This document shows positions 3,172-12,601 of a DNA stretch of 20,000 bases, in pieces. The translations under genes were made by a program, and so were the position numbers. The stretch is from an uncultured virus (IMG/VR IMGVR_UViG_3300020049_001346) (taxonomy: Duplodnaviria > Heunggongvirae > Uroviricota > Caudoviricetes): the IMG/VR virus record IMGVR_UViG_3300020049_001346. One strand, 5' to 3'. Within the stretch, counting starts at the first letter, position 1; the number at the start of each line of letters is the position of its first letter. The notes below the pieces were generated by a model that had not been told where the DNA came from, ran no database searches, and saw only the letters and a list, made by a program, of their open reading frames with translations.

Positions 3172-3243
3172 AGTCAGGTGGCAGTAATTGGTAACTGCGA
3201 AGCATTATGCATAGAAATACAGGTTCGAATCCTGTCCTGACTA
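3172..3243 (+). tRNA. tRNA-like element lacking a canonical anticodon arm
   Basis: Acceptor AGTCAGG/CCTGACT; D stem GCAG/CTGC with GG in loop; T arm ACAGG-TTCGAAT-CCTGT; only 20 nt between D and T arms and no 5-bp/7-nt anticodon arm. Confidence 0.8.
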
Positions 3244-4175: not shown

Positions 4176-4554
4176 AATTTGGAGGGACGCGACATGGTTC
4201 CACAAGTCGACAAGGCTTGACACACCGTACTCGAAGTCAAGAATATTCAAGGGTATAAAGATCGAGAACACGGACGGGGAGATAAAGATCCTGAACACAA
4301 AGTTAAACGGGGACTTCTACCAGGAGGTATCGAAGGAGGAGTACAGGATGTTCTATAGGCTAGGGTTCGAGCAGGGGTGCTACGAGATGTGCCTAGCGAA
4401 CTATAGGATGTCGCTGAATACAATCATCCGTAGCATACGAGATGAGATAGGGAACCGAAACAATCAGAAGCACTACCAGTATCTGAAGACGATGAGAGTG
4501 AACCTAATGGAGAAGTACACTAATGTTTTAAAAATCAAGTACGAAAATGTTTAA
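4165..4554 (+). CDS. hypothetical protein
   Basis: 129-aa ORF, backbone codon usage. Confidence 0.75.
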   Translation: MKNEIWRDATWFHKSTRLDTPYSKSRIFKGIKIENTDGEIKILNTKLNGDFYQEVSKEEYRMFYRLGFEQGCYEMCLANYRMSLNTIIRSIRDEIGNRNNQKHYQYLKTMRVNLMEKYTNVLKIKYENV

Positions 4555-4563
4555 TTTTTTTTG

Positions 4564-4571
4564 TATCTTTG
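4564..4571 (+). promoter_or_regulatory. Bacteroidota sigma-A -7 box (TATCTTTG)
   Basis: Matches TAnnTTTG, intergenic, upstream of structured leader and HNH gene. Confidence 0.75.
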
Positions 4572-4575
4572 CAAT

Positions 4576-4669
4576 GTAATGAAGTGAGACACATTGCGCC
4601 CGAAAATATTTAATAATCCTGTCAAGGAGGCATGTCTCACATTACTGCCAAATTGATGGGGTTTTTTTT
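4576..4669 (+). ncRNA. kissing-loop leader ending in an intrinsic terminator (attenuator-like)
   Basis: Hairpin GTAATG/CATTGC with loop GTGAGACA; hairpin ATCCTGTCAA/TTGATGGGGT plus GGCA/TGCC with loop TGTCTCACATTAC; T8 tract 4662-4669. Confidence 0.7.
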
Positions 4670-4674
4670 GTGAT

Positions 4675-5295
4675 ATGAAGAAGTGTACAAAGTGTAATGT
4701 TGAGAGGGAATTAATTGAGTTTAGTAAAGATAGAACTAGAATAGATGGATTATTTCCTCAATGTAAAAAGTGTAAAAAAATTGATGATGATAAATCTTAT
4801 TTAAATAATAAAAATAAAATAATTGCTAAATCTAAAAAATGGAATGAAGAAAATAAAGAAAGAAGAAAGGAATATAGAAGGCAATACAATATAAAAAATA
4901 AAGAAGTAGAAAATCAAAAATGTAGAGAATGGAATAAGTTAAATAGACATAAAGCAAATGAATATTTAAAAAACAGAATATTAAATGACCCTTTATTTAA
5001 ACTTAGTAGTAGTATACGATCTTTAATAAGGACTTCAATGAAAGGTAATGGATACTCAAAAAAAACTAAGACTTACAATATACTAGGATGTACATTTGAA
5101 GAATTTAAAAGTCATCTAGAAAGTCAATTTACCGAAGGAATGACTTGGGAGAATAAAGGTCAATGGCATATGGATCATATATACCCAGTATCATTAGCAA
5201 TAGACGAGGATCATATGATAAAGTTGAATCATTACACAAACTTCCAACCATTGTGGGCAAAAGATAATATAAGTAAATCAAATAAATTAAATTAA
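4675..5295 (+). CDS. free-standing HNH-type (homing-like) endonuclease with N-terminal zinc finger
   Basis: CTKC...DG...CKKC N-terminus; C-terminal LGC...LESQF..GMTWEN..QWHMDHIYP...NHYTNFQPLWAKDNISKSNK HNH motif; strongly AT-rich. Confidence 0.85.
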   Translation: MKKCTKCNVERELIEFSKDRTRIDGLFPQCKKCKKIDDDKSYLNNKNKIIAKSKKWNEENKERRKEYRRQYNIKNKEVENQKCREWNKLNRHKANEYLKNRILNDPLFKLSSSIRSLIRTSMKGNGYSKKTKTYNILGCTFEEFKSHLESQFTEGMTWENKGQWHMDHIYPVSLAIDEDHMIKLNHYTNFQPLWAKDNISKSNKLN

Positions 5296-5299
5296 ACAA

Positions 5300-5872
5300 A
5301 TGGAGAAAATTTTTAAAACATTATCAGAGATTGACATAAAGTCAAAAGTAGAGAAGAAGGGTAGTCAGAACTACCTCAGTTGGGCTAACGCGTGGGGGTT
5401 TGCAAAGCAAATGTATCCATCAATACAACGTATAGTGTACGAGGATCCGTTGACGGGACTTAACTACCTAAACGATGGTAAGACGGGCTATGTGAAGGTT
5501 GGAATTGTAATCGAGGGACTAGAGCACATCGACTACCTACCAATCATGAGCCACAACAACAAGTCAATTGGAATAGATAACATAACATCATTCGAGGTGT
5601 CAAAGACTATCCAAAGGAGCACTGTAAAGGCGTTGGCGCTTCACGGACTAGGCCTTCAGATGTGGAGTGGTGAAGACCTAGTGACAACTACAAAGGTAGA
5701 GAAGCCTTCAGGCCCTCTAGAGTTGACCATAGGTGACGCGAATTGGGACAAGGTCATCAAGTACATCAAGGACAACAAGCACCTTGGATTGGCCACGATA
5801 GTCAAGAACCTTGAGACGAAGTATAAAATTTCAACCGTAATCAAAAAAGAACTTGGGAAATATGTTGGATAG
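5300..5872 (+). CDS. sak: Sak-like (Rad52 fold, DUF1071-type) single-strand annealing protein
   Basis: VEKKG...YLSWANAW, GYVKVGIVI, LPIM..NN, IQRSTVKALALHGLGL motifs; next to exonuclease and SSB. Confidence 0.85.
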   Translation: MEKIFKTLSEIDIKSKVEKKGSQNYLSWANAWGFAKQMYPSIQRIVYEDPLTGLNYLNDGKTGYVKVGIVIEGLEHIDYLPIMSHNNKSIGIDNITSFEVSKTIQRSTVKALALHGLGLQMWSGEDLVTTTKVEKPSGPLELTIGDANWDKVIKYIKDNKHLGLATIVKNLETKYKISTVIKKELGKYVG

Positions 5873-6575
5873 ACTAAGAAATGACAAAGACTACTACGGG
5901 GACTACGGATCGCAGTTCCTAAGTAATAGCGCGGTGGGTGTACTATTAAGTAACCCTAAGATGTTTAAGGTAAAGCAGGAGCCGACGGTTCCTATGCTAC
6001 AAGGTAGCTACTTCCACACGGCCATATTGGAGCCTGAGAAGTTGGCCAACTTTGAGATAGTGGAGGCGAGCACGCGTAACACAAACATATACAAGGACGC
6101 GTCAAAGGGCAACCTGCTCCTGCTAAGGAATGAGTGTGACAACCTTGACGAGATGGTTCGCGTGATCAAGTCGAACTTCTTCTTTTACGAGAACATCTAC
6201 AAGGACGGAAACGTGTACGAGGAGCCCGCCATCATGGAGTTGTTCGGCCACAAGTTCAAGGGCAAGGCAGACATTGTGACAGACGAGATTATTATCGACA
6301 TCAAGACCACGTCAAAGATCTCTGACTTCAGGTGGTCTGCAAAGAAGTACAACTACGACTCGCAGTCATATTTGTATCAGCAATTTTTTGATAAACCCTT
6401 GATTTTCTACGTAATAGATAAGGGTACTCACGAGTTGGGTGTGTTCGAGCCTAGTGCAGAGTTCCTACTAGGAGGTAGAGAGAAGGTGTTGCGTGCGGTT
6501 GAGGTCTACGAAAAGTTCTTTGGAGACAGTCCTAAGGAGGACATAAATAATTTCTTCATAAGGGAAGATTTGTAA
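5862..6575 (+). CDS. PD-(D/E)XK exonuclease (DUF3799/RecE-like)
   Basis: LSNS, GSYFHTAILEPE, EE, KGKAD...IIDIKTT, YDSQSYLY motifs. Confidence 0.85.
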   Translation: MLDRLRNDKDYYGDYGSQFLSNSAVGVLLSNPKMFKVKQEPTVPMLQGSYFHTAILEPEKLANFEIVEASTRNTNIYKDASKGNLLLLRNECDNLDEMVRVIKSNFFFYENIYKDGNVYEEPAIMELFGHKFKGKADIVTDEIIIDIKTTSKISDFRWSAKKYNYDSQSYLYQQFFDKPLIFYVIDKGTHELGVFEPSAEFLLGGREKVLRAVEVYEKFFGDSPKEDINNFFIREDL

Positions 6576-6586
6576 CAAATTTGTTG

Positions 6587-6594
6587 TATATTTG
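6587..6594 (+). promoter_or_regulatory. Bacteroidota -7 box (TATATTTG)
   Basis: TAnnTTTG 28 nt upstream of the tRNA-like gene. Confidence 0.6.
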
Positions 6595-6622: not shown

Positions 6623-6694
6623 TGTTGTATAGTTTAGCGGTAGAATAGGCCTTGTTTAATAGGCTAGACGAGGGTTCGAGTCCCTCTGCAACAT
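6623..6694 (+). tRNA. atypical tRNA with 8-nt anticodon loop (identity undetermined)
   Basis: Acceptor TGTTGTA/TGCAACA; D stem GTTT/GAAT with loop AGCGGTA; anticodon stem GGCCT/AGGCT with loop TGTTTAAT; T arm GAGGG-TTCGAGT-CCCTC; no encoded CCA. Confidence 0.8.
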
Positions 6695-6749
6695 CAAACT
6701 GAATAGCCGACGGCAGTACAACTAGGTAGGCAAAATTAAATTTAATAAA

Positions 6750-7109: not shown

Positions 7110-7117
7110 TACCTTTG
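7110..7117 (+). promoter_or_regulatory. Bacteroidota -7 box (TACCTTTG)
   Basis: TAnnTTTG 24 nt upstream of ATG 7142. Confidence 0.6.
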
Positions 7118-7141
7118 TTATTATTAATTAAATATAAATAT

Positions 7142-7678
7142 ATGAATGAGATTTTAACAAAGGTTTGTTTTAAATGTAATTTAGAAAAAAGTGTTTATGA
7201 TTTTTATAAGCACAAACAAATGGGTGATGGATACTTAGGTAAGTGTAAAGAATGTACAAAAAAAGATTCTAAAAAACAATTACAATTAAATATTTCTACT
7301 CCAGAGGGTCTTGAAAAAGAAAGAAAAAGACATAGAGAAAAGTATTTTAGATTAGATTATAGAGAAAAGCATAAGCCTAGTACTGAAAAAAAGAGATCTA
7401 TAATGAATAGATATAATCTAAAGTATCCAGGAAAAAAAATATGTAAATATCTTTCAAGAAATTTAAAACCAACAACAAAAGGAAACGAACTTCATCATTG
7501 GAATTATAATAGAGAATTTGCAAAAGATACAATAGAACTTAGTATTAAAGATCATAATAAAATACATAGGTTTTTAAAGTATGATTCAAATTTATTTATA
7601 TATATTGATGTTAATGGAAACTTATTAGATACTAAGGATAAGCATTTGTCTTTTATTCTTAAATTAATAGATTTATAA
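7142..7678 (+). CDS. second free-standing zinc-finger/HNH-like endonuclease
   Basis: CFKC...FYKHKQMGDGYLGKCKEC N-terminus; C-terminal LHHWNY...L...DHNKIH; AT-rich. Confidence 0.7.
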   Translation: MNEILTKVCFKCNLEKSVYDFYKHKQMGDGYLGKCKECTKKDSKKQLQLNISTPEGLEKERKRHREKYFRLDYREKHKPSTEKKRSIMNRYNLKYPGKKICKYLSRNLKPTTKGNELHHWNYNREFAKDTIELSIKDHNKIHRFLKYDSNLFIYIDVNGNLLDTKDKHLSFILKLIDL

Positions 7679-7831: not shown

Positions 7832-10228
7832 ATGATAACAATATTTTCAAACATAAAGAGCACAGACACACCGTTCTTCAGGGGTATAGGTGTGGTTCTA
7901 CAGAGGATCAAGGACGGATCCTCAAGGGACAAGGTCGAGGCGATCCGCACCGAGTCAGACAAGGAGAGGAGGAACCTACTCAAGAGGGATCTGCCTTCGG
8001 TGTGCTTCTCGGGTACCTTCAACAAGCGTGAAGACAAGGCCATCGTAGACCACAGTGGTTTTATATGCCTTGACTTCGACGGTTACGAGACAGAGGATGA
8101 CCTACTAGCAGACAAAGTAAGGCTATCAGAGGATGCTCACAGTTACTCAGTGTTCGTGTCTCCATCAGGTAACGGACTAAAGGTAATCGTGAAGATACCT
8201 AAGGACATAGACAACCACAAGAACTACTTCAACTCACTAGAGAAGCACTTCGACTCCAAGTACTTCGACACCACGTCCAAGAACATATCTAGGGTTTGCT
8301 ACGAGTCGTACGACCCAGAGATATACATAAACGTGGACTCTAGGTTATGGGACAAGTTGGAGGAGGTGGAGTACGTTGAGTTAGACAGGTCTAGCAGTGT
8401 AACAACCATACCTATAACAAACGACAACAAGGTTGTAGAGATACTGATGAGGTGGTGGTCAAAGAACTACCCGATGGTTGACGGCAAGAGAAACAACAAC
8501 ATGTTTATATTGGCCTCAGCCTTAAACGATTACGGCGTGAACAAGTCACTGTCTGAGTACGTGATGAGTCAGTTCGTCAGTCAGAAGCACCCGATGTCTG
8601 AGATACAGACCATCATAAACTCTGCGTATAAGAACACGGGATCGTTCGGATCCAAGTACTTCGAGGACGACGACATGATCAATCAGGTTCGTCAGAAGAT
8701 CAAGAGGGGAGTGTCCAAGAAGGAGATCAAGTCAGACCTGTCGGAGACCAACCTACCTAGCTTCACGATAGACTCTGTGATAGACTCTATAGACAAGGAC
8801 GAGTCGGTCAACAAGTTCTGGAGCAAGTCGGACAAGGGATCCATAAGCATCGTGCACTACATGTTCAGAGACTTCTTGGAGGACAACGGGTTTTACAAGT
8901 ACATGCCCGTTGGAAACAAGAGTTTTATATTCGTGCGTGTTACGAATAACCTGATAGACCACACGTCAGAGGACGAGATCAAGGACTTCGTTCTCAACTA
9001 CCTACAGAATGTGGACGACCTGTCTGTGTACAACTTCTTCGCTGACAAGACTAGGTTCTTCAAGGAGGACTTCCTGTCGCTACTGTCATCGGTTGACGTG
9101 CACTTCATGGAGGACGACAAGAACAACGCGTACCTTTACTACACGAACTGTGCGGTAAACATCACCAAGAACACCATAAGTATTATAGATTACCTAGATC
9201 TGGGTGGGTACATATGGAAGGATCAGGTGATAGACAGGGAGTTCGACCTGTGCGAGGTAGAGGACTGCGACTTCAAGACATTCATTTCAAACATATCGGA
9301 CGATGATACAGTTAGGATTAACTCGGTTGAGAGTACTATTGGGTTCCTTCTGCACGGATATAAGAATCTATCTTACTGTCCTGCGGTCATTCTAAATGAC
9401 GAGGTCATAACGGACAACCCAGAGGGAGGAACAGGAAAGGGACTGTTCACCAACGCGATATCGCAGATGAAGAAGCTAGCATTCATAGATGGAAAGAGTA
9501 TCAACTTTGACAGTGGTTTCCCGTTTCAGACGGTATCGGTTGATACTCAGGTGCTAGCGTTTGATGATGTTAAGAAGCACTTCAACTTCGAGAGGCTGTT
9601 CTCGATCATCACAGAGGGTATCACCCTAGAGAGGAAGAACCAACAGGCCATGCACATACCATTCAACAAGTCACCTAAGATCATCATCACGACCAACTAC
9701 GCCATCAAGGGTAAGGGTAACTCGTTCGAGAGACGTAAGTGGGAGTTGGAGTTCAAGCAGTTCTACACCAAGGAGTTCACTCCACAGGTTGAGTTCGGCA
9801 GGCTACTGTTCACGGAATGGGACGAGCACGAGTGGTGCAGGTTCGACAACTACATGATCAAGAGCCTTCAGAGGTATCTCACATCAGGCCTACTCAAGAG
9901 CGAGTTCGTCAACCTTAAGATCCGTAAGCTATCTGCAGACACATGCCACGAGTTTATCGACTGGTGTGGCCTAATCAACGGTGAGGCACACAGCGACAAG
10001 CTGGTACTGGGTGAGGTGATATACAAGCAGGATCTGTACATAGACTTCATTCAGGACAACCCAGACTTCCAACCAAAGGCCAAGAGGACTATATCCAGGA
10101 CAGAGTTCTATAACTGGCTGATCTCCTACGGGATATACATATCAGGTGTCAAGCCTATAGAGGGTAGGAGCAGTACAGGAATGTGGATTAAATTCGTTGG
10201 CAAGGATGAAGACAGCATATTATTTTAA
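7832..10228 (+). CDS. primase-helicase: BT4734/VirE-N AEP primase + PriCT-1 + SF3 helicase
   Basis: LPSVCFSGTF, GFICLDFD, SPSGNGLK; GKRNNNMFILA; Walker A GGTGKG, Walker B LAFDD, motif C IIITTN. Confidence 0.9.
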   Translation: MITIFSNIKSTDTPFFRGIGVVLQRIKDGSSRDKVEAIRTESDKERRNLLKRDLPSVCFSGTFNKREDKAIVDHSGFICLDFDGYETEDDLLADKVRLSEDAHSYSVFVSPSGNGLKVIVKIPKDIDNHKNYFNSLEKHFDSKYFDTTSKNISRVCYESYDPEIYINVDSRLWDKLEEVEYVELDRSSSVTTIPITNDNKVVEILMRWWSKNYPMVDGKRNNNMFILASALNDYGVNKSLSEYVMSQFVSQKHPMSEIQTIINSAYKNTGSFGSKYFEDDDMINQVRQKIKRGVSKKEIKSDLSETNLPSFTIDSVIDSIDKDESVNKFWSKSDKGSISIVHYMFRDFLEDNGFYKYMPVGNKSFIFVRVTNNLIDHTSEDEIKDFVLNYLQNVDDLSVYNFFADKTRFFKEDFLSLLSSVDVHFMEDDKNNAYLYYTNCAVNITKNTISIIDYLDLGGYIWKDQVIDREFDLCEVEDCDFKTFISNISDDDTVRINSVESTIGFLLHGYKNLSYCPAVILNDEVITDNPEGGTGKGLFTNAISQMKKLAFIDGKSINFDSGFPFQTVSVDTQVLAFDDVKKHFNFERLFSIITEGITLERKNQQAMHIPFNKSPKIIITTNYAIKGKGNSFERRKWELEFKQFYTKEFTPQVEFGRLLFTEWDEHEWCRFDNYMIKSLQRYLTSGLLKSEFVNLKIRKLSADTCHEFIDWCGLINGEAHSDKLVLGEVIYKQDLYIDFIQDNPDFQPKAKRTISRTEFYNWLISYGIYISGVKPIEGRSSTGMWIKFVGKDEDSILF

Positions 10229-10490
10229 GTGGTGCATAGAGAATGACTTTCAGGTTTACATCAAGCCTGAGAGTTATTACTATAAGATAGCGATCCGTAA
10301 GGGTGGCATCACATCAAACGGCAAGGACTTCTACTACGACAGAGATACTGGGATGGAGTACTACAGTAACGAGAGGACAGGCTCGGTTAGATACAAGAGT
10401 GTTGACATGGCGTCAGCAAAGTTACACGATGTTTATAAGTACCTATATGAAGAAAACACTAAGGGATTACCAGTCAGACCTAGCAGGTAA
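10206..10490 (+). CDS. hypothetical protein
   Basis: ORF between primase and helicase; start MKTAYY. Confidence 0.7.
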   Translation: MKTAYYFKWCIENDFQVYIKPESYYYKIAIRKGGITSNGKDFYYDRDTGMEYYSNERTGSVRYKSVDMASAKLHDVYKYLYEENTKGLPVRPSR

Positions 10491-11673
10491 GGGGGTCAAG
10501 ATACTAAGGGACAAGGGTCTAGTATACCTGTGCATGAGCGTAAGGACGGGCAAGACCGCCACGTCAATGCAGATAGCCAAGTTGTACGGAGCAGACAAGG
10601 TTCTGTTCCTGACAAAGAAGAAGGCCATGGGCGACATACTAAGTGACTACCTAGACTTCGGGTTCAACTTCTCGATAGAGATCATGAACGACGAGTCTAT
10701 GCACAAGTGCCTTGGTCAGTACGACCTTGTTATACACGACGAGCACCACAGGTTCGGAGCCATACCTAAACCTGGAAAGGCCACCAAGACATTCAAGAGG
10801 ATGTTCGGCCACCTGCCGATGGTGTTCCTGTCGGGTACCCCGAGCCCAGAGAACTACAGCCAGCTGTTCCATCAGTACTGGGTATCGCACAGTAGCCCAT
10901 TCAAGAGCTACGTGAACTTCTACAAGTGGGCAAAGGACTACGTGATACCTGGCACCAAGTACACGAGCTACGGGCCTGCACCAGACTACTCCAACGCCAA
11001 GATCGACCTAGTCATGAGTGTGATAGAGACGTACGTTCTAACGTACACGCAGGAGCAGGCAGGCTTTGTATCTGAGATTGAGGAGGAGGTTCTGACAGTT
11101 GACATGAAGCCGTCCACGTACAACCTAGCGAGCAGGCTCAAGAGAGACCTAGTGGTACAGGGTAAGGAGGAGGTCATACTGGCAGACACGGGGGTTAAGT
11201 TGATGCAGAAGCTACACCAGATCTACTCAGGCACGATCAAGTTCGAGTCTGGTAGCAGGATGGTGATAGATGATAGCAAGGCTCTCCATATAATGGAGAA
11301 GTTCAAACATACCAAGATCGGAATATTTTATAAGTTTGTTGCTGAGTTGGATGCACTACGTCAAGTATACGGTGCAGAAAACTTGACAACTGACTTAGAG
11401 GAGTTCAACACCACAGACAAGTCCATAGCGCTACAGATCGTATCTGGTAGGGAGGGGATAAGTTTGAGGAATGCTGAGTTCATAGTGTTCTACAACATAG
11501 ACTTCTCGGCCACGAGTTACTGGCAGGCGAGGGATCGTATGACCACAATGGAGCGTAAGTTCAACAAGGTGTACTGGGTGTTCTCTAAGGGAGGAATAGA
11601 GCAGGACATATACAAGCAGGTACTTAAGAAAAAGAATTTCACATTATCACACTTTAAAATATGTACAGAGTAA
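10447..11673 (+). CDS. SF2 (SNF2/ResIII-like) DNA helicase
   Basis: LRDYQ Q-motif, RTGKT, DEHH, LSGTP, EGISL, QARDR. Confidence 0.9.
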   Translation: MKKTLRDYQSDLAGKGVKILRDKGLVYLCMSVRTGKTATSMQIAKLYGADKVLFLTKKKAMGDILSDYLDFGFNFSIEIMNDESMHKCLGQYDLVIHDEHHRFGAIPKPGKATKTFKRMFGHLPMVFLSGTPSPENYSQLFHQYWVSHSSPFKSYVNFYKWAKDYVIPGTKYTSYGPAPDYSNAKIDLVMSVIETYVLTYTQEQAGFVSEIEEEVLTVDMKPSTYNLASRLKRDLVVQGKEEVILADTGVKLMQKLHQIYSGTIKFESGSRMVIDDSKALHIMEKFKHTKIGIFYKFVAELDALRQVYGAENLTTDLEEFNTTDKSIALQIVSGREGISLRNAEFIVFYNIDFSATSYWQARDRMTTMERKFNKVYWVFSKGGIEQDIYKQVLKKKNFTLSHFKICTE

Positions 11674-11855
11674 AAGAAGTTAACGGAAAGTTTGTGCCTC
11701 AGGTAGGCAATTGGTTTAAGGGATACAGACCAATAGATAGAAAGAGTTCATATCTTTGGACAGATAATTATGAAGTATACTGCGAGTTAGATACACTACA
11801 AGAAGCCTTAGATAGAATTGAAAAGTATAAAATTAAATACCACAAAGTAAAATGA
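11661..11855 (+). CDS. hypothetical protein
   Basis: 64-aa ORF starting an AT-rich island. Confidence 0.7.
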   Translation: MYRVKEVNGKFVPQVGNWFKGYRPIDRKSSYLWTDNYEVYCELDTLQEALDRIEKYKIKYHKVK

Positions 11856-12061
11856 CATTAAAAGATAAATTTCAACAATGGTTCATCAATGATGAAGAAG
11901 ATGAACATTATGAAGGAATGGTAGAACTCGTATCTATCGAACATGAAAAAATAGCAGATGAATTTGCTATTGGATTTGGAGAATTTATGCTTACAAAAGT
12001 ATTTGTAAAAAAATCAGTAACAGAATTATTAGAAATTTATAAAAAAGAAAAAGGATTATGA
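11852..12061 (+). CDS. small hypothetical protein (IADEFAIGF...ELLEIYKKEKGL type)
   Basis: AT-rich, ATGA-coupled at both ends. Confidence 0.75.
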   Translation: MTLKDKFQQWFINDEEDEHYEGMVELVSIEHEKIADEFAIGFGEFMLTKVFVKKSVTELLEIYKKEKGL

Positions 12062-12231
12062 CACCAAAAGAAAAAGCACAAGAGTTAATTGATAAATATG
12101 ATTCAATTTTAACTTATAAATCCAAACAATGTGCATTAGTAGCAGTTGATGAAGTTAGAAATAATTTACCATTAATATCAGATATACAACAATATTGGAT
12201 TGAAGTTAAACGAGAAATAGAGAAATTATGA
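12058..12231 (+). CDS. small hypothetical protein (MTPKEKAQEL...QCALVAVDE...YWIEVKREIEKL)
   Basis: Read by hand, 57 aa, ATGA-coupled. Confidence 0.75.
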   Translation: MTPKEKAQELIDKYDSILTYKSKQCALVAVDEVRNNLPLISDIQQYWIEVKREIEKL

Positions 12232-12362
12232 AACAAAAAATAATAAATAAAATGAATGAGGGACAGGAAGAAGATGTACCCTTGTACACGTGGGAGACAA
12301 TACCTAACAACTTAAAACAATTTTGGAAGCAATGGCTAGTAGATTTCAAACAAAGACAATAG
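12228..12362 (+). CDS. hypothetical protein (44 aa)
   Basis: Read by hand; ATGA-coupled. Confidence 0.5.
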   Translation: MKQKIINKMNEGQEEDVPLYTWETIPNNLKQFWKQWLVDFKQRQ

Positions 12363-12601
12363 CAAGGTTCAAGTCCGATGGATGGATCGTGCTGAACACA
12401 ATCAAGCTGAGCGATAGCGGTTACCCAGACCTGATCTGTCTCAAGGACGGTAAGACTGTATTCATAGAGTGCAAGGAGGATGGTGACACACTGAAGCCAC
12501 TACAGGAGTACAGAATAGATGAACTAATATCCCAAGGCTTCGAGGCTTACTGCCTGCACGCAACCAAGGGACAAATATATCCACCATGTACACAACAGTA
12601 G
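12332..12601 (+). CDS. VRR-NUC domain nuclease (putative junction resolvase)
   Basis: GYPDLICL...VFIECK...LKPLQ...IDEL..QGF motif. Confidence 0.85.
   Translation: MASRFQTKTIARFKSDGWIVLNTIKLSDSGYPDLICLKDGKTVFIECKEDGDTLKPLQEYRIDELISQGFEAYCLHATKGQIYPPCTQQ

Follow-up and report, generated by a model that had tools for sequence, protein, structure and literature searches.

A portable promoter and predicted kissing-loop attenuator before a putative homing endonuclease gene and replication genes of Bacteroidota phages

Introduction

In antisense attenuators of the pT181 type, loop-loop recognition decides termination ahead of a replication initiator, and the loop sequence provides the specificity. 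A structured RNA (HEARO/omegaRNA) lies 5' of the HNH-containing open reading frame of IscB. In the guanidine-IV riboswitch (mepA/GGAM-1 motif), the P1 loop kisses the loop of the terminator, an interaction that works as the anti-terminator and comes under strain as the growing P2 shortens the linker (PMC11611296, PMC7736828). Among T-even phages, terminators are described for mobE and segF, and hairpins sequester the ribosome-binding sites of I-TevI, segB, and Aeh1 mobE (PMC2988022). Phage P4 CI RNA, from the seqA-seqC leader, and Gifsy-1 IsrK are short leader RNAs of replication operons with premature termination and complementary boxes within the leader (PMC4825925).

Here we describe a leader RNA in the window, the whole 20,000-nucleotide stretch that was analyzed (IMG/VR record IMGVR_UViG_3300020049_001346), which resembles each of these systems in part. 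As in guanidine-IV, the loop of a 5' hairpin kisses the loop of an intrinsic-terminator hairpin across a linker, and the kiss and closure of the terminator would compete. Unlike guanidine-IV, the leader varies in its loop nucleotides (26 codes among 33 copies) and so has no evident ligand pocket, lacks an Rfam match, and is found in phages, before nucleases and replication genes. It shares with P4 CI RNA and IsrK the position at a replication operon, the complementary boxes, and a predicted premature termination, but it has a pair of boxes where P4 has a CI unit between seqA and seqC, occurs also in lytic phages, and has no Rfam match to families of the C4/IsrK type, to which P1 C4 belongs. 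Like the free-standing homing endonucleases of T-even phages, its nuclease gene is optional, AT-rich, and intergenic, with altered neighboring sequence and an RNA structure predicted to limit expression; unlike them, it has its own promoter and a two-hairpin pseudoknotted leader, a module held in common with core phage genes. In contrast to pT181-type attenuators, both loops are in one transcript and counter-promoters are not enriched. In contrast to HEARO and IscB, the leader is much shorter, is optional, has no guide match and no RuvC partner, and is also found before non-nuclease genes.

Results

An optional nuclease cassette before sak

Genes for Sak, exonuclease VIII, a primase, and a helicase are present in the window, a phage fragment of Bacteroidota type (Table 1). 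Lake-type contigs in IMG/VR, none longer than 64 kb, are its close relatives. The cassette before sak has a GC content of 27%, compared with 44 to 45% in the flanking genes. It is absent from all six of the closest Sak loci (L020 to L025; 76 to 95% protein identity), in which the upstream gene is joined directly to sak, and the similarity of the window to these loci breaks off at 4541 and returns at 5312 (5339 in L025). The first eight sak codons in the window differ from those of the empty alleles; relative to L020 and L021, 9 of the first 30 bases of sak differ (two of these from a one-codon offset), followed by 0 to 1 per 30. An optional intergenic insertion is recognized by empty alleles together with changed adjacent sequence, and the cassette shows both. 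Replacement of neighboring sequence is expected for intronless homing (PMC2988022), and the cassette bringing its own first sak codons agrees with this.

The complete relative with an empty allele (G008) gave no match to leader covariance model R1 anywhere in its record. The nearest record (G001) is identical to the window in the leader and the start of the protein, and is non-independent. From these comparisons, the cassette is a putatively mobile, optional insertion, and the empty alleles in the six close relatives bear out the proposal of a first-pass annotation that a promoter and leader of its own move together with the nuclease.

Table 1. Features of the cassette and its surroundings (window coordinates)
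Feature	Position	Strand	Basis or remark
Upstream host-phage gene	4165..4554	+	Own stop codon replaced by cassette left end (junction comparison)
Optional cassette: promoter, leader RNA, HNH gene, new sak 5' end	4542..5311	+	Similarity breaks
Bacteroidota sigma-A -7 box TATCTTTG	4564..4571	+	Sequence; positions -12 to -5; predicted +1 = G4576
Hairpin P1, 6 bp, 10-nt loop, GTAATG/CATTGC (4576-81/4592-97)	4576..4597	+	Folding; starts at predicted +1
Loop code x, GTGAGACA	4584..4591	+	P1 loop, sequence
A/U-rich linker with conserved AAAATATT	4598..4614	+	Invariant columns in seed alignment
Hairpin P2, terminator-like	4615..4663	+	z -2.5 for 4612-4672
Loop code x', TGTCTCAC, complement of x	4633..4640	+	P2 loop, sequence
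U8 tract, predicted termination site	4662..4669	+	Sequence; ATG at 4675
Free-standing HNH (beta-beta-alpha-Me) endonuclease, 206 aa	4675..5295	+	phrog_1035 endonuclease VII, E 9e-21
Sak single-strand annealing protein	5300..5872	+	PF06378, E 3.6e-27; now 3' of cassette promoter
Exonuclease VIII-like (DUF3799) gene	5862..6575	+	Recombination partner of sak, common operon

Other leader-plus-HNH cassettes are present in the sak-exonuclease operons of relatives (L021, 3576-4277; L026, 2080-2972 and 4688-5472), at sites between sak and the exonuclease gene, before sak, and after the exonuclease gene. This operon looks like an insertion hot spot.

Elsewhere in the window, a second AT-rich gene for a zinc-finger nuclease-like protein (7110-7678; phrog_2340, E 3.5e-11) has a TACCTTTG box 25 nt 5' of its ATG and no leader; it is also absent from relatives L020, L021, L022, and L024. 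There are tRNA matches at 6623-6695 and 3172-3243, of which ARAGORN recovers the former alone, with no assignable anticodon; a TATATTTG box at 6587 precedes it and the stretch is variable among relatives. A phage-encoded 4Fe-4S ferredoxin (2232-2534; PF12838, E 1.3e-8) is shared with L021 and L022, and the region from 7832 to 12601 codes for a primase-like protein (BT4734-like N, PriCT_1, DUF5906), an SNF2-type helicase, and a VRR-NUC protein.

The nuclease

The protein has an N-terminal C4 zinc finger, a helical spacer, and a C-terminal nuclease domain (D167-H168, N189, N198). There are at least 2,678 homologues, and the zinc cysteines, D167, H168, N189, and N198 are invariant in 40 of them; the HNH active-site residues are intact. 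A structural model of the nuclease domain (pLDDT 89) has weak matches, mostly to HNH folds (Z 2 to 3.7); Foldseek returned no match at E of 0.001 or below, and a sequence search of the PDB found nothing. The first-pass annotation had seen no RuvC motifs, and we agree: no Pfam family is matched, hence neither a RuvC nor an IscB family, and the protein consists only of the zinc finger, helices, and HNH domain. We classify it as a putative free-standing homing endonuclease of the endonuclease VII-like HNH type.

The leader in the window

The flavobacterial -7 box spans -12 to -5 (PMC6847099 and PMC9723704), so transcription would start at G4576, the first base of P1. P2 is made up of an 11-bp lower stem (4615-25/4653-63), a GGA/AAA internal loop, a 4-bp upper stem (4629-32/4646-49), and a 13-nt loop. 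A generic terminator scan did not list P2 because its loop exceeds the 3- to 8-nt limit of the scan. In the linker, columns A40, A42, A43, A45, and T46 are invariant among the 18 seeds of the alignment, partly by construction, several seeds having been found through the AAAATATT word.

The x:x' duplex is calculated at -10.9 kcal/mol, and none of 200 dinucleotide shuffles of the P2 interior did as well. The perfect complementarity of the two loops reported by the first-pass annotation is therefore real and beyond chance, and it is kept with changed letters across the family; the positions it gave for the promoter box, both loops, the T8 run, and the ATG proved correct on re-reading. The full leader folds as two hairpins (z -1.06, unremarkable). 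A longer pairing had also been proposed, with the kiss extended through GTAAT/ATTAC into a 13-bp helix with a 3-nt bulge. This helix is possible in the window, where it is the minimum free energy structure of 4576-4645 alone (-17.3 kcal/mol, z -2.7), but the extension is not conserved: even if bulges and G-U pairs are tolerated, no more than 5 of 29 copies can form five to six extra pairs beyond the kiss, and the GTAAT/ATTAC extension is a local accident. A leader peptide running in frame through P2 was considered and rejected, as the frame is kept in L026 and stopped in the window.

A covarying family of leaders

Thirty-three copies were tabulated from homologue loci, pattern scans, BLAST, and two covariance models (R1 and R2), with identical copies collapsed. 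All share a -7 box, P1, an A-rich linker, a long terminator hairpin P2, and a T-rich tail, with an x-to-x' distance of 38 to 51 nt. There are 26 different loop codes, and 32 copies have a perfect loop-loop match of 6 to 10 bp, the exception having one mismatch; in 29 copies, cognate loops pair with a mean of -9.96 kcal/mol, compared with -2.88 for non-cognate loops. P1 begins between -1 and +9, mostly within +3, with a purine at +1 in 20 of the 29 copies that could be parsed, and at least six T are found in the eight bases behind P2 in 28 of 29. The start codon is 5 to 22 nt past P2 in most copies and 44 to 48 nt in three, in which the U tract is retained.

Many copies were first found with a script that required a kiss, and covariance models lacking a pseudoknot term are thus the cleaner test of it. 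All seven matches of such a model at E of 0.01 or below in one search have a kiss, and three have codes that no seed contains; the new places at E of 0.001 or below (L509 to L512, L516, and L523) all have one too. Two weak R2 matches (L513 and L514) do not, and were dropped. The covariation score is 0.52, compared with 0.18 for shuffled and at most 0.12 for slid controls, with two-sided changes in 27 of 28 pairs (P1, 6/6; P2 lower stem, 10/10; P2 upper stem, 4/4), in an alignment (A3) that was fitted to P1 and P2 and has the kiss columns in register in about half of its rows. Covariation shows conservation of both hairpins, the pairing of their loops, and the U tract. The check that the first-pass annotation had suggested, covariation upstream of homologous genes, comes out in favor of a conserved and covarying structure that includes loop pairing with different letters.

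An element in L458 (187-318; E 1) is longer and leader-like, with a 9-base complementary pair and a terminator and no ORF found behind it; it is left out of the family counts. An antisense promoter was sought and rejected, as opposite-strand TAnnTTTG, the only type counted, occurs in 6 of 29 copies versus 15 of 78 background segments.

Rfam gave nothing at the gathering score in the window leader or in 17 other loci, with three matches at chance level (E about 1 to 9). Pattern scans were mostly noise: in one, 8 of 50 viral matches were members by eye, and a later scan contributed just L204 and L269/L272. Of 98 cellular pattern matches, none exceeded 31.3 bits with R1, and the 12 that were folded looked chance-like. 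R1 had no match in 151 Flavobacteriaceae-family genomes, a search that is uninformative since 25 of thousands of candidates per genome were scored, and in plasmids the leader search gave only 29-base chance matches. No published description of the element was found among titles and the openings of abstracts; large motif catalogues, such as the supplement of PMC5737381, may hold the motif, and the main text of that paper has no mention of HNH, Bacteroidetes, Flavobacter, kissing, or homing. Judged by sequence, the leader is an uncatalogued RNA family, a variant of kissing-loop terminator control.

Genes behind the leader

The first genes behind the 33 copies are 17 HNH genes of the window family, 2 NUMOD4-type HNH genes, 2 short zinc-finger ORFs, 5 replication-initiator or putative primosomal genes (two assigned on weak family evidence), 4 small genes of unknown function, and 1 each coding for a helicase, a DUF6378 protein, and an unknown product. 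Replication initiators, the helicase, and other non-nuclease genes thus stand behind 12 of the 33, in a sample that favored HNH loci. By gene content, the leader is not HNH-specific.

Cultured Flavobacterium phages carry it also. BLAST locates the leader in 46 records of vB_FspS phages, and in the two that were examined it precedes a 70-aa gene, followed by a putative primosomal gene and primase. In phage elemoA_10-9C, a homologous nuclease (49% identity) follows a leader whose kiss is 8 bp long, and hattifnatt9-1 and snusmum6-1 have three copies each, with three codes.

A gene of 70 to 73 aa with no named family is first behind the leader in L303 (4155-4364), L304 (2657-2866), and L101 (1648-1866). 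The C-terminal halves look shared, and the L303 and L304 copies precede a putative primosomal gene and primase; the product is a candidate partner or regulator. Leaders are also found before ORFs of 96 to 98 aa with a zinc finger and coiled coil (L067, 237-524; L086, 2347-2640), which resemble the nuclease N terminus and lack the nuclease domain. In L001, L109, L418, and L433, an HNH gene has its -7 box 2 to 13 nt 5' of the ATG, predicting nearly leaderless transcripts and perhaps a second expression strategy within the nuclease family.

These distributions bear on a role for the RNA as cofactor or guide of the nuclease, as HEARO/omegaRNA is for IscB, which the first-pass annotation had offered as an alternative to an attenuator. 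The leader is directly 5' of a nuclease in 19 of 33 copies, with sampling aimed at HNH loci, and it does contain a variable segment. However, it also precedes the unrelated NUMOD4-type HNH genes and the non-nuclease genes, and only about 12 of 136 homologous nucleases have one. The 136 are what is left of 144 homologous ORFs (from 160 loci) once 8 without upstream DNA are set aside; 11 have a known leader, and inspection of 34 by eye gave one more. The count probably includes some hosts outside Bacteroidota and may overlook diverged leaders. Of the 23 closest nucleases, five have a leader (six with L431), and the bearers are scattered, with 15 changes for 18 rows on a quick tree that is poorly resolved and has few supported forks. 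The variable segment is tied up in cis, and its matches to flanks within 300 nt are no better than those of foreign codes; there is no IscB or RuvC family, and no HEARO match in Rfam. We consider a guide or cofactor function very improbable and do not retain it. Most likely, the leader serves as a portable valve on transcription and not as an enzyme guide.

Kiss and terminator

On balance, we think it probable that this valve attenuates kinetically and needs no ligand, with the kiss allowing a fraction of polymerases to read through. The presence of the leader upstream of unrelated genes is as expected for a cis element. A homing endonuclease would have captured a portable module of promoter and kissing-loop attenuator that is also used before the replication genes of Bacteroidota phages. 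With transcription starting at the predicted G4576, P1 would form first and display x; x' would emerge about 40 nt later and pair with x while the 3' strand of P2 is still to be transcribed. If the kiss is held, the short linker would hinder closing of the terminator base and the polymerase would enter the nuclease and sak-exonuclease genes; if P2 zips first, an RNA of roughly 90 nt would be released at the U tract. A Watson-Crick kiss of 6 to 10 bp would take the place of the guanidine-IV ligand and meter read-through kinetically, and the RNA would set the dose of the nuclease and not guide it. Covariation establishes the structure, whereas the direction and the input of the valve are what we infer.

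In nested prefix folding, the x:x' helix has a probability of at least 0.5 eleven bases past x' in 24 of 29 copies, and in the other five the kiss is not formed in the prefixes. At full length, P2 wins, with an x:x' probability of 0.19 or less in all 29, although ViennaRNA is unable to fold the kiss and P2 together and the apparent switch between them is therefore partly a product of the model. Together with the guanidine-IV precedent, prefix folding suggests that the kiss works against the terminator and is not a mere embellishment of a terminated RNA. Of the two options in the first-pass annotation, an attenuator is the best reading; termination as the default, which it had also proposed, is conjectural.

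The rival closest to that earlier attenuator has the kiss and terminator coexisting, the kiss compacting or protecting the terminated RNA or aiding the folding of P2, with expression by leak-through only. Several copies in which both loops are 6 to 8 nt and almost fully paired have the classical coexisting geometry, and the preference for P2 at full length fits as well; terminators also limit T4 mobE and segF (PMC2988022). In the window copy, the linker can span a coaxial stack of the kiss and P2 (ratio 1.45) at a crude cost of 1 to 4 kcal/mol, and kiss and terminator may coexist there. In four copies with a long P2, however, the linker is shorter than the stack (ratio 0.60 to 0.74), and they cannot hold both under coaxial geometry. 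P1 and the code would be superfluous for a plain terminator, and leak alone would poorly serve core replication genes; we regard such coexistence as distinctly unlikely to be the explanation. Against the kinetic valve, linker and helix length show no positive correlation (rho -0.41, p 0.09, 18 copies, several with mis-parsed P2 bases).

A phage or host protein could instead throw the switch, acting on the internal loop of P2 (AGUA/GAA or GGA/GAA) or on the A-rich linker, or P2 could hinder ribosome loading 5 to 22 nt downstream. AGTA/GAA, which we take to be a bulged-G motif, occurs in 7 of 33 copies, and the pattern G[GA]A/[GA]A[AC] in 12 more. The usual spacing of the start codon would suit a translational effect, and structure near the start lowers initiation in Flavobacterium johnsoniae (PMC6847099). 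But 14 of the 33 copies have a non-conserved internal loop, the downstream proteins are unrelated, which makes self-binding unlikely, and the U tract is kept even in the three copies with a distant ATG. We judge control by a bound factor or by ribosome access to be highly unlikely.

The loop codes raise the question of action in trans. Atop the kiss valve, the free x' of terminated leaders might capture nascent x in a code-specific manner and enforce termination; with the cis kiss blocked, an early burst would be followed by shut-off as genome copies rise, much as with P4 CI RNA but within one 95-nt unit. This addition we consider unlikely, though several features are compatible with it: x is made about 40 to 50 nt ahead of x', the codes are extremely diverse, and the downstream genes (replication initiators, helicase, primase operons, and nucleases) are ones for which timing or dose matters. 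P4 also provides a precedent (PMC4825925). In eight multi-copy genomes no two copies have a common code, and none of 28 cross pairings reaches -7 kcal/mol, but this distinctness is not significant, since 5.7% of between-genome pairs cross-react and about 1.6 of 28 would be expected; W03 and W04 are related, moreover, and the two copies in G002 still cross-pair over 6 bp (-6.6). Compensatory drift alone accounts for the diversity of codes. The mumin phages are described as lytic only (PMC7077304), so lysogenic immunity is not the purpose there, and the purpose would be timing or dose. In its fullest form, which is possible but doubtful, the leader would be an RNA timer that addresses itself and needs no ligand: in the first transcripts made upon infection the terminator is opened by the cis kiss, terminated leaders then shut read-through from their own promoter in trans by means of a hypervariable 6- to 10-nt code, and phages and selfish nucleases share mutually insulated auto-attenuators for replication and homing genes.

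Discussion

With this leader, a phylum in which phage gene control is little studied gains an uncatalogued family of regulatory RNA whose covariation is unusually clean. Having the guanidine-IV fold without its conserved ligand contacts, the leader lends itself to asking, in a natural setting, whether a kissing loop can by itself hold a terminator open. One portable promoter module links selfish nuclease genes with core replication genes. Direct testing is possible, as the leader is carried by cultured phages such as elemoA_10-9C and hattifnatt9-1. If the reading in trans is true, these leaders would provide dozens of natural orthogonal RNA switches for Bacteroidota.
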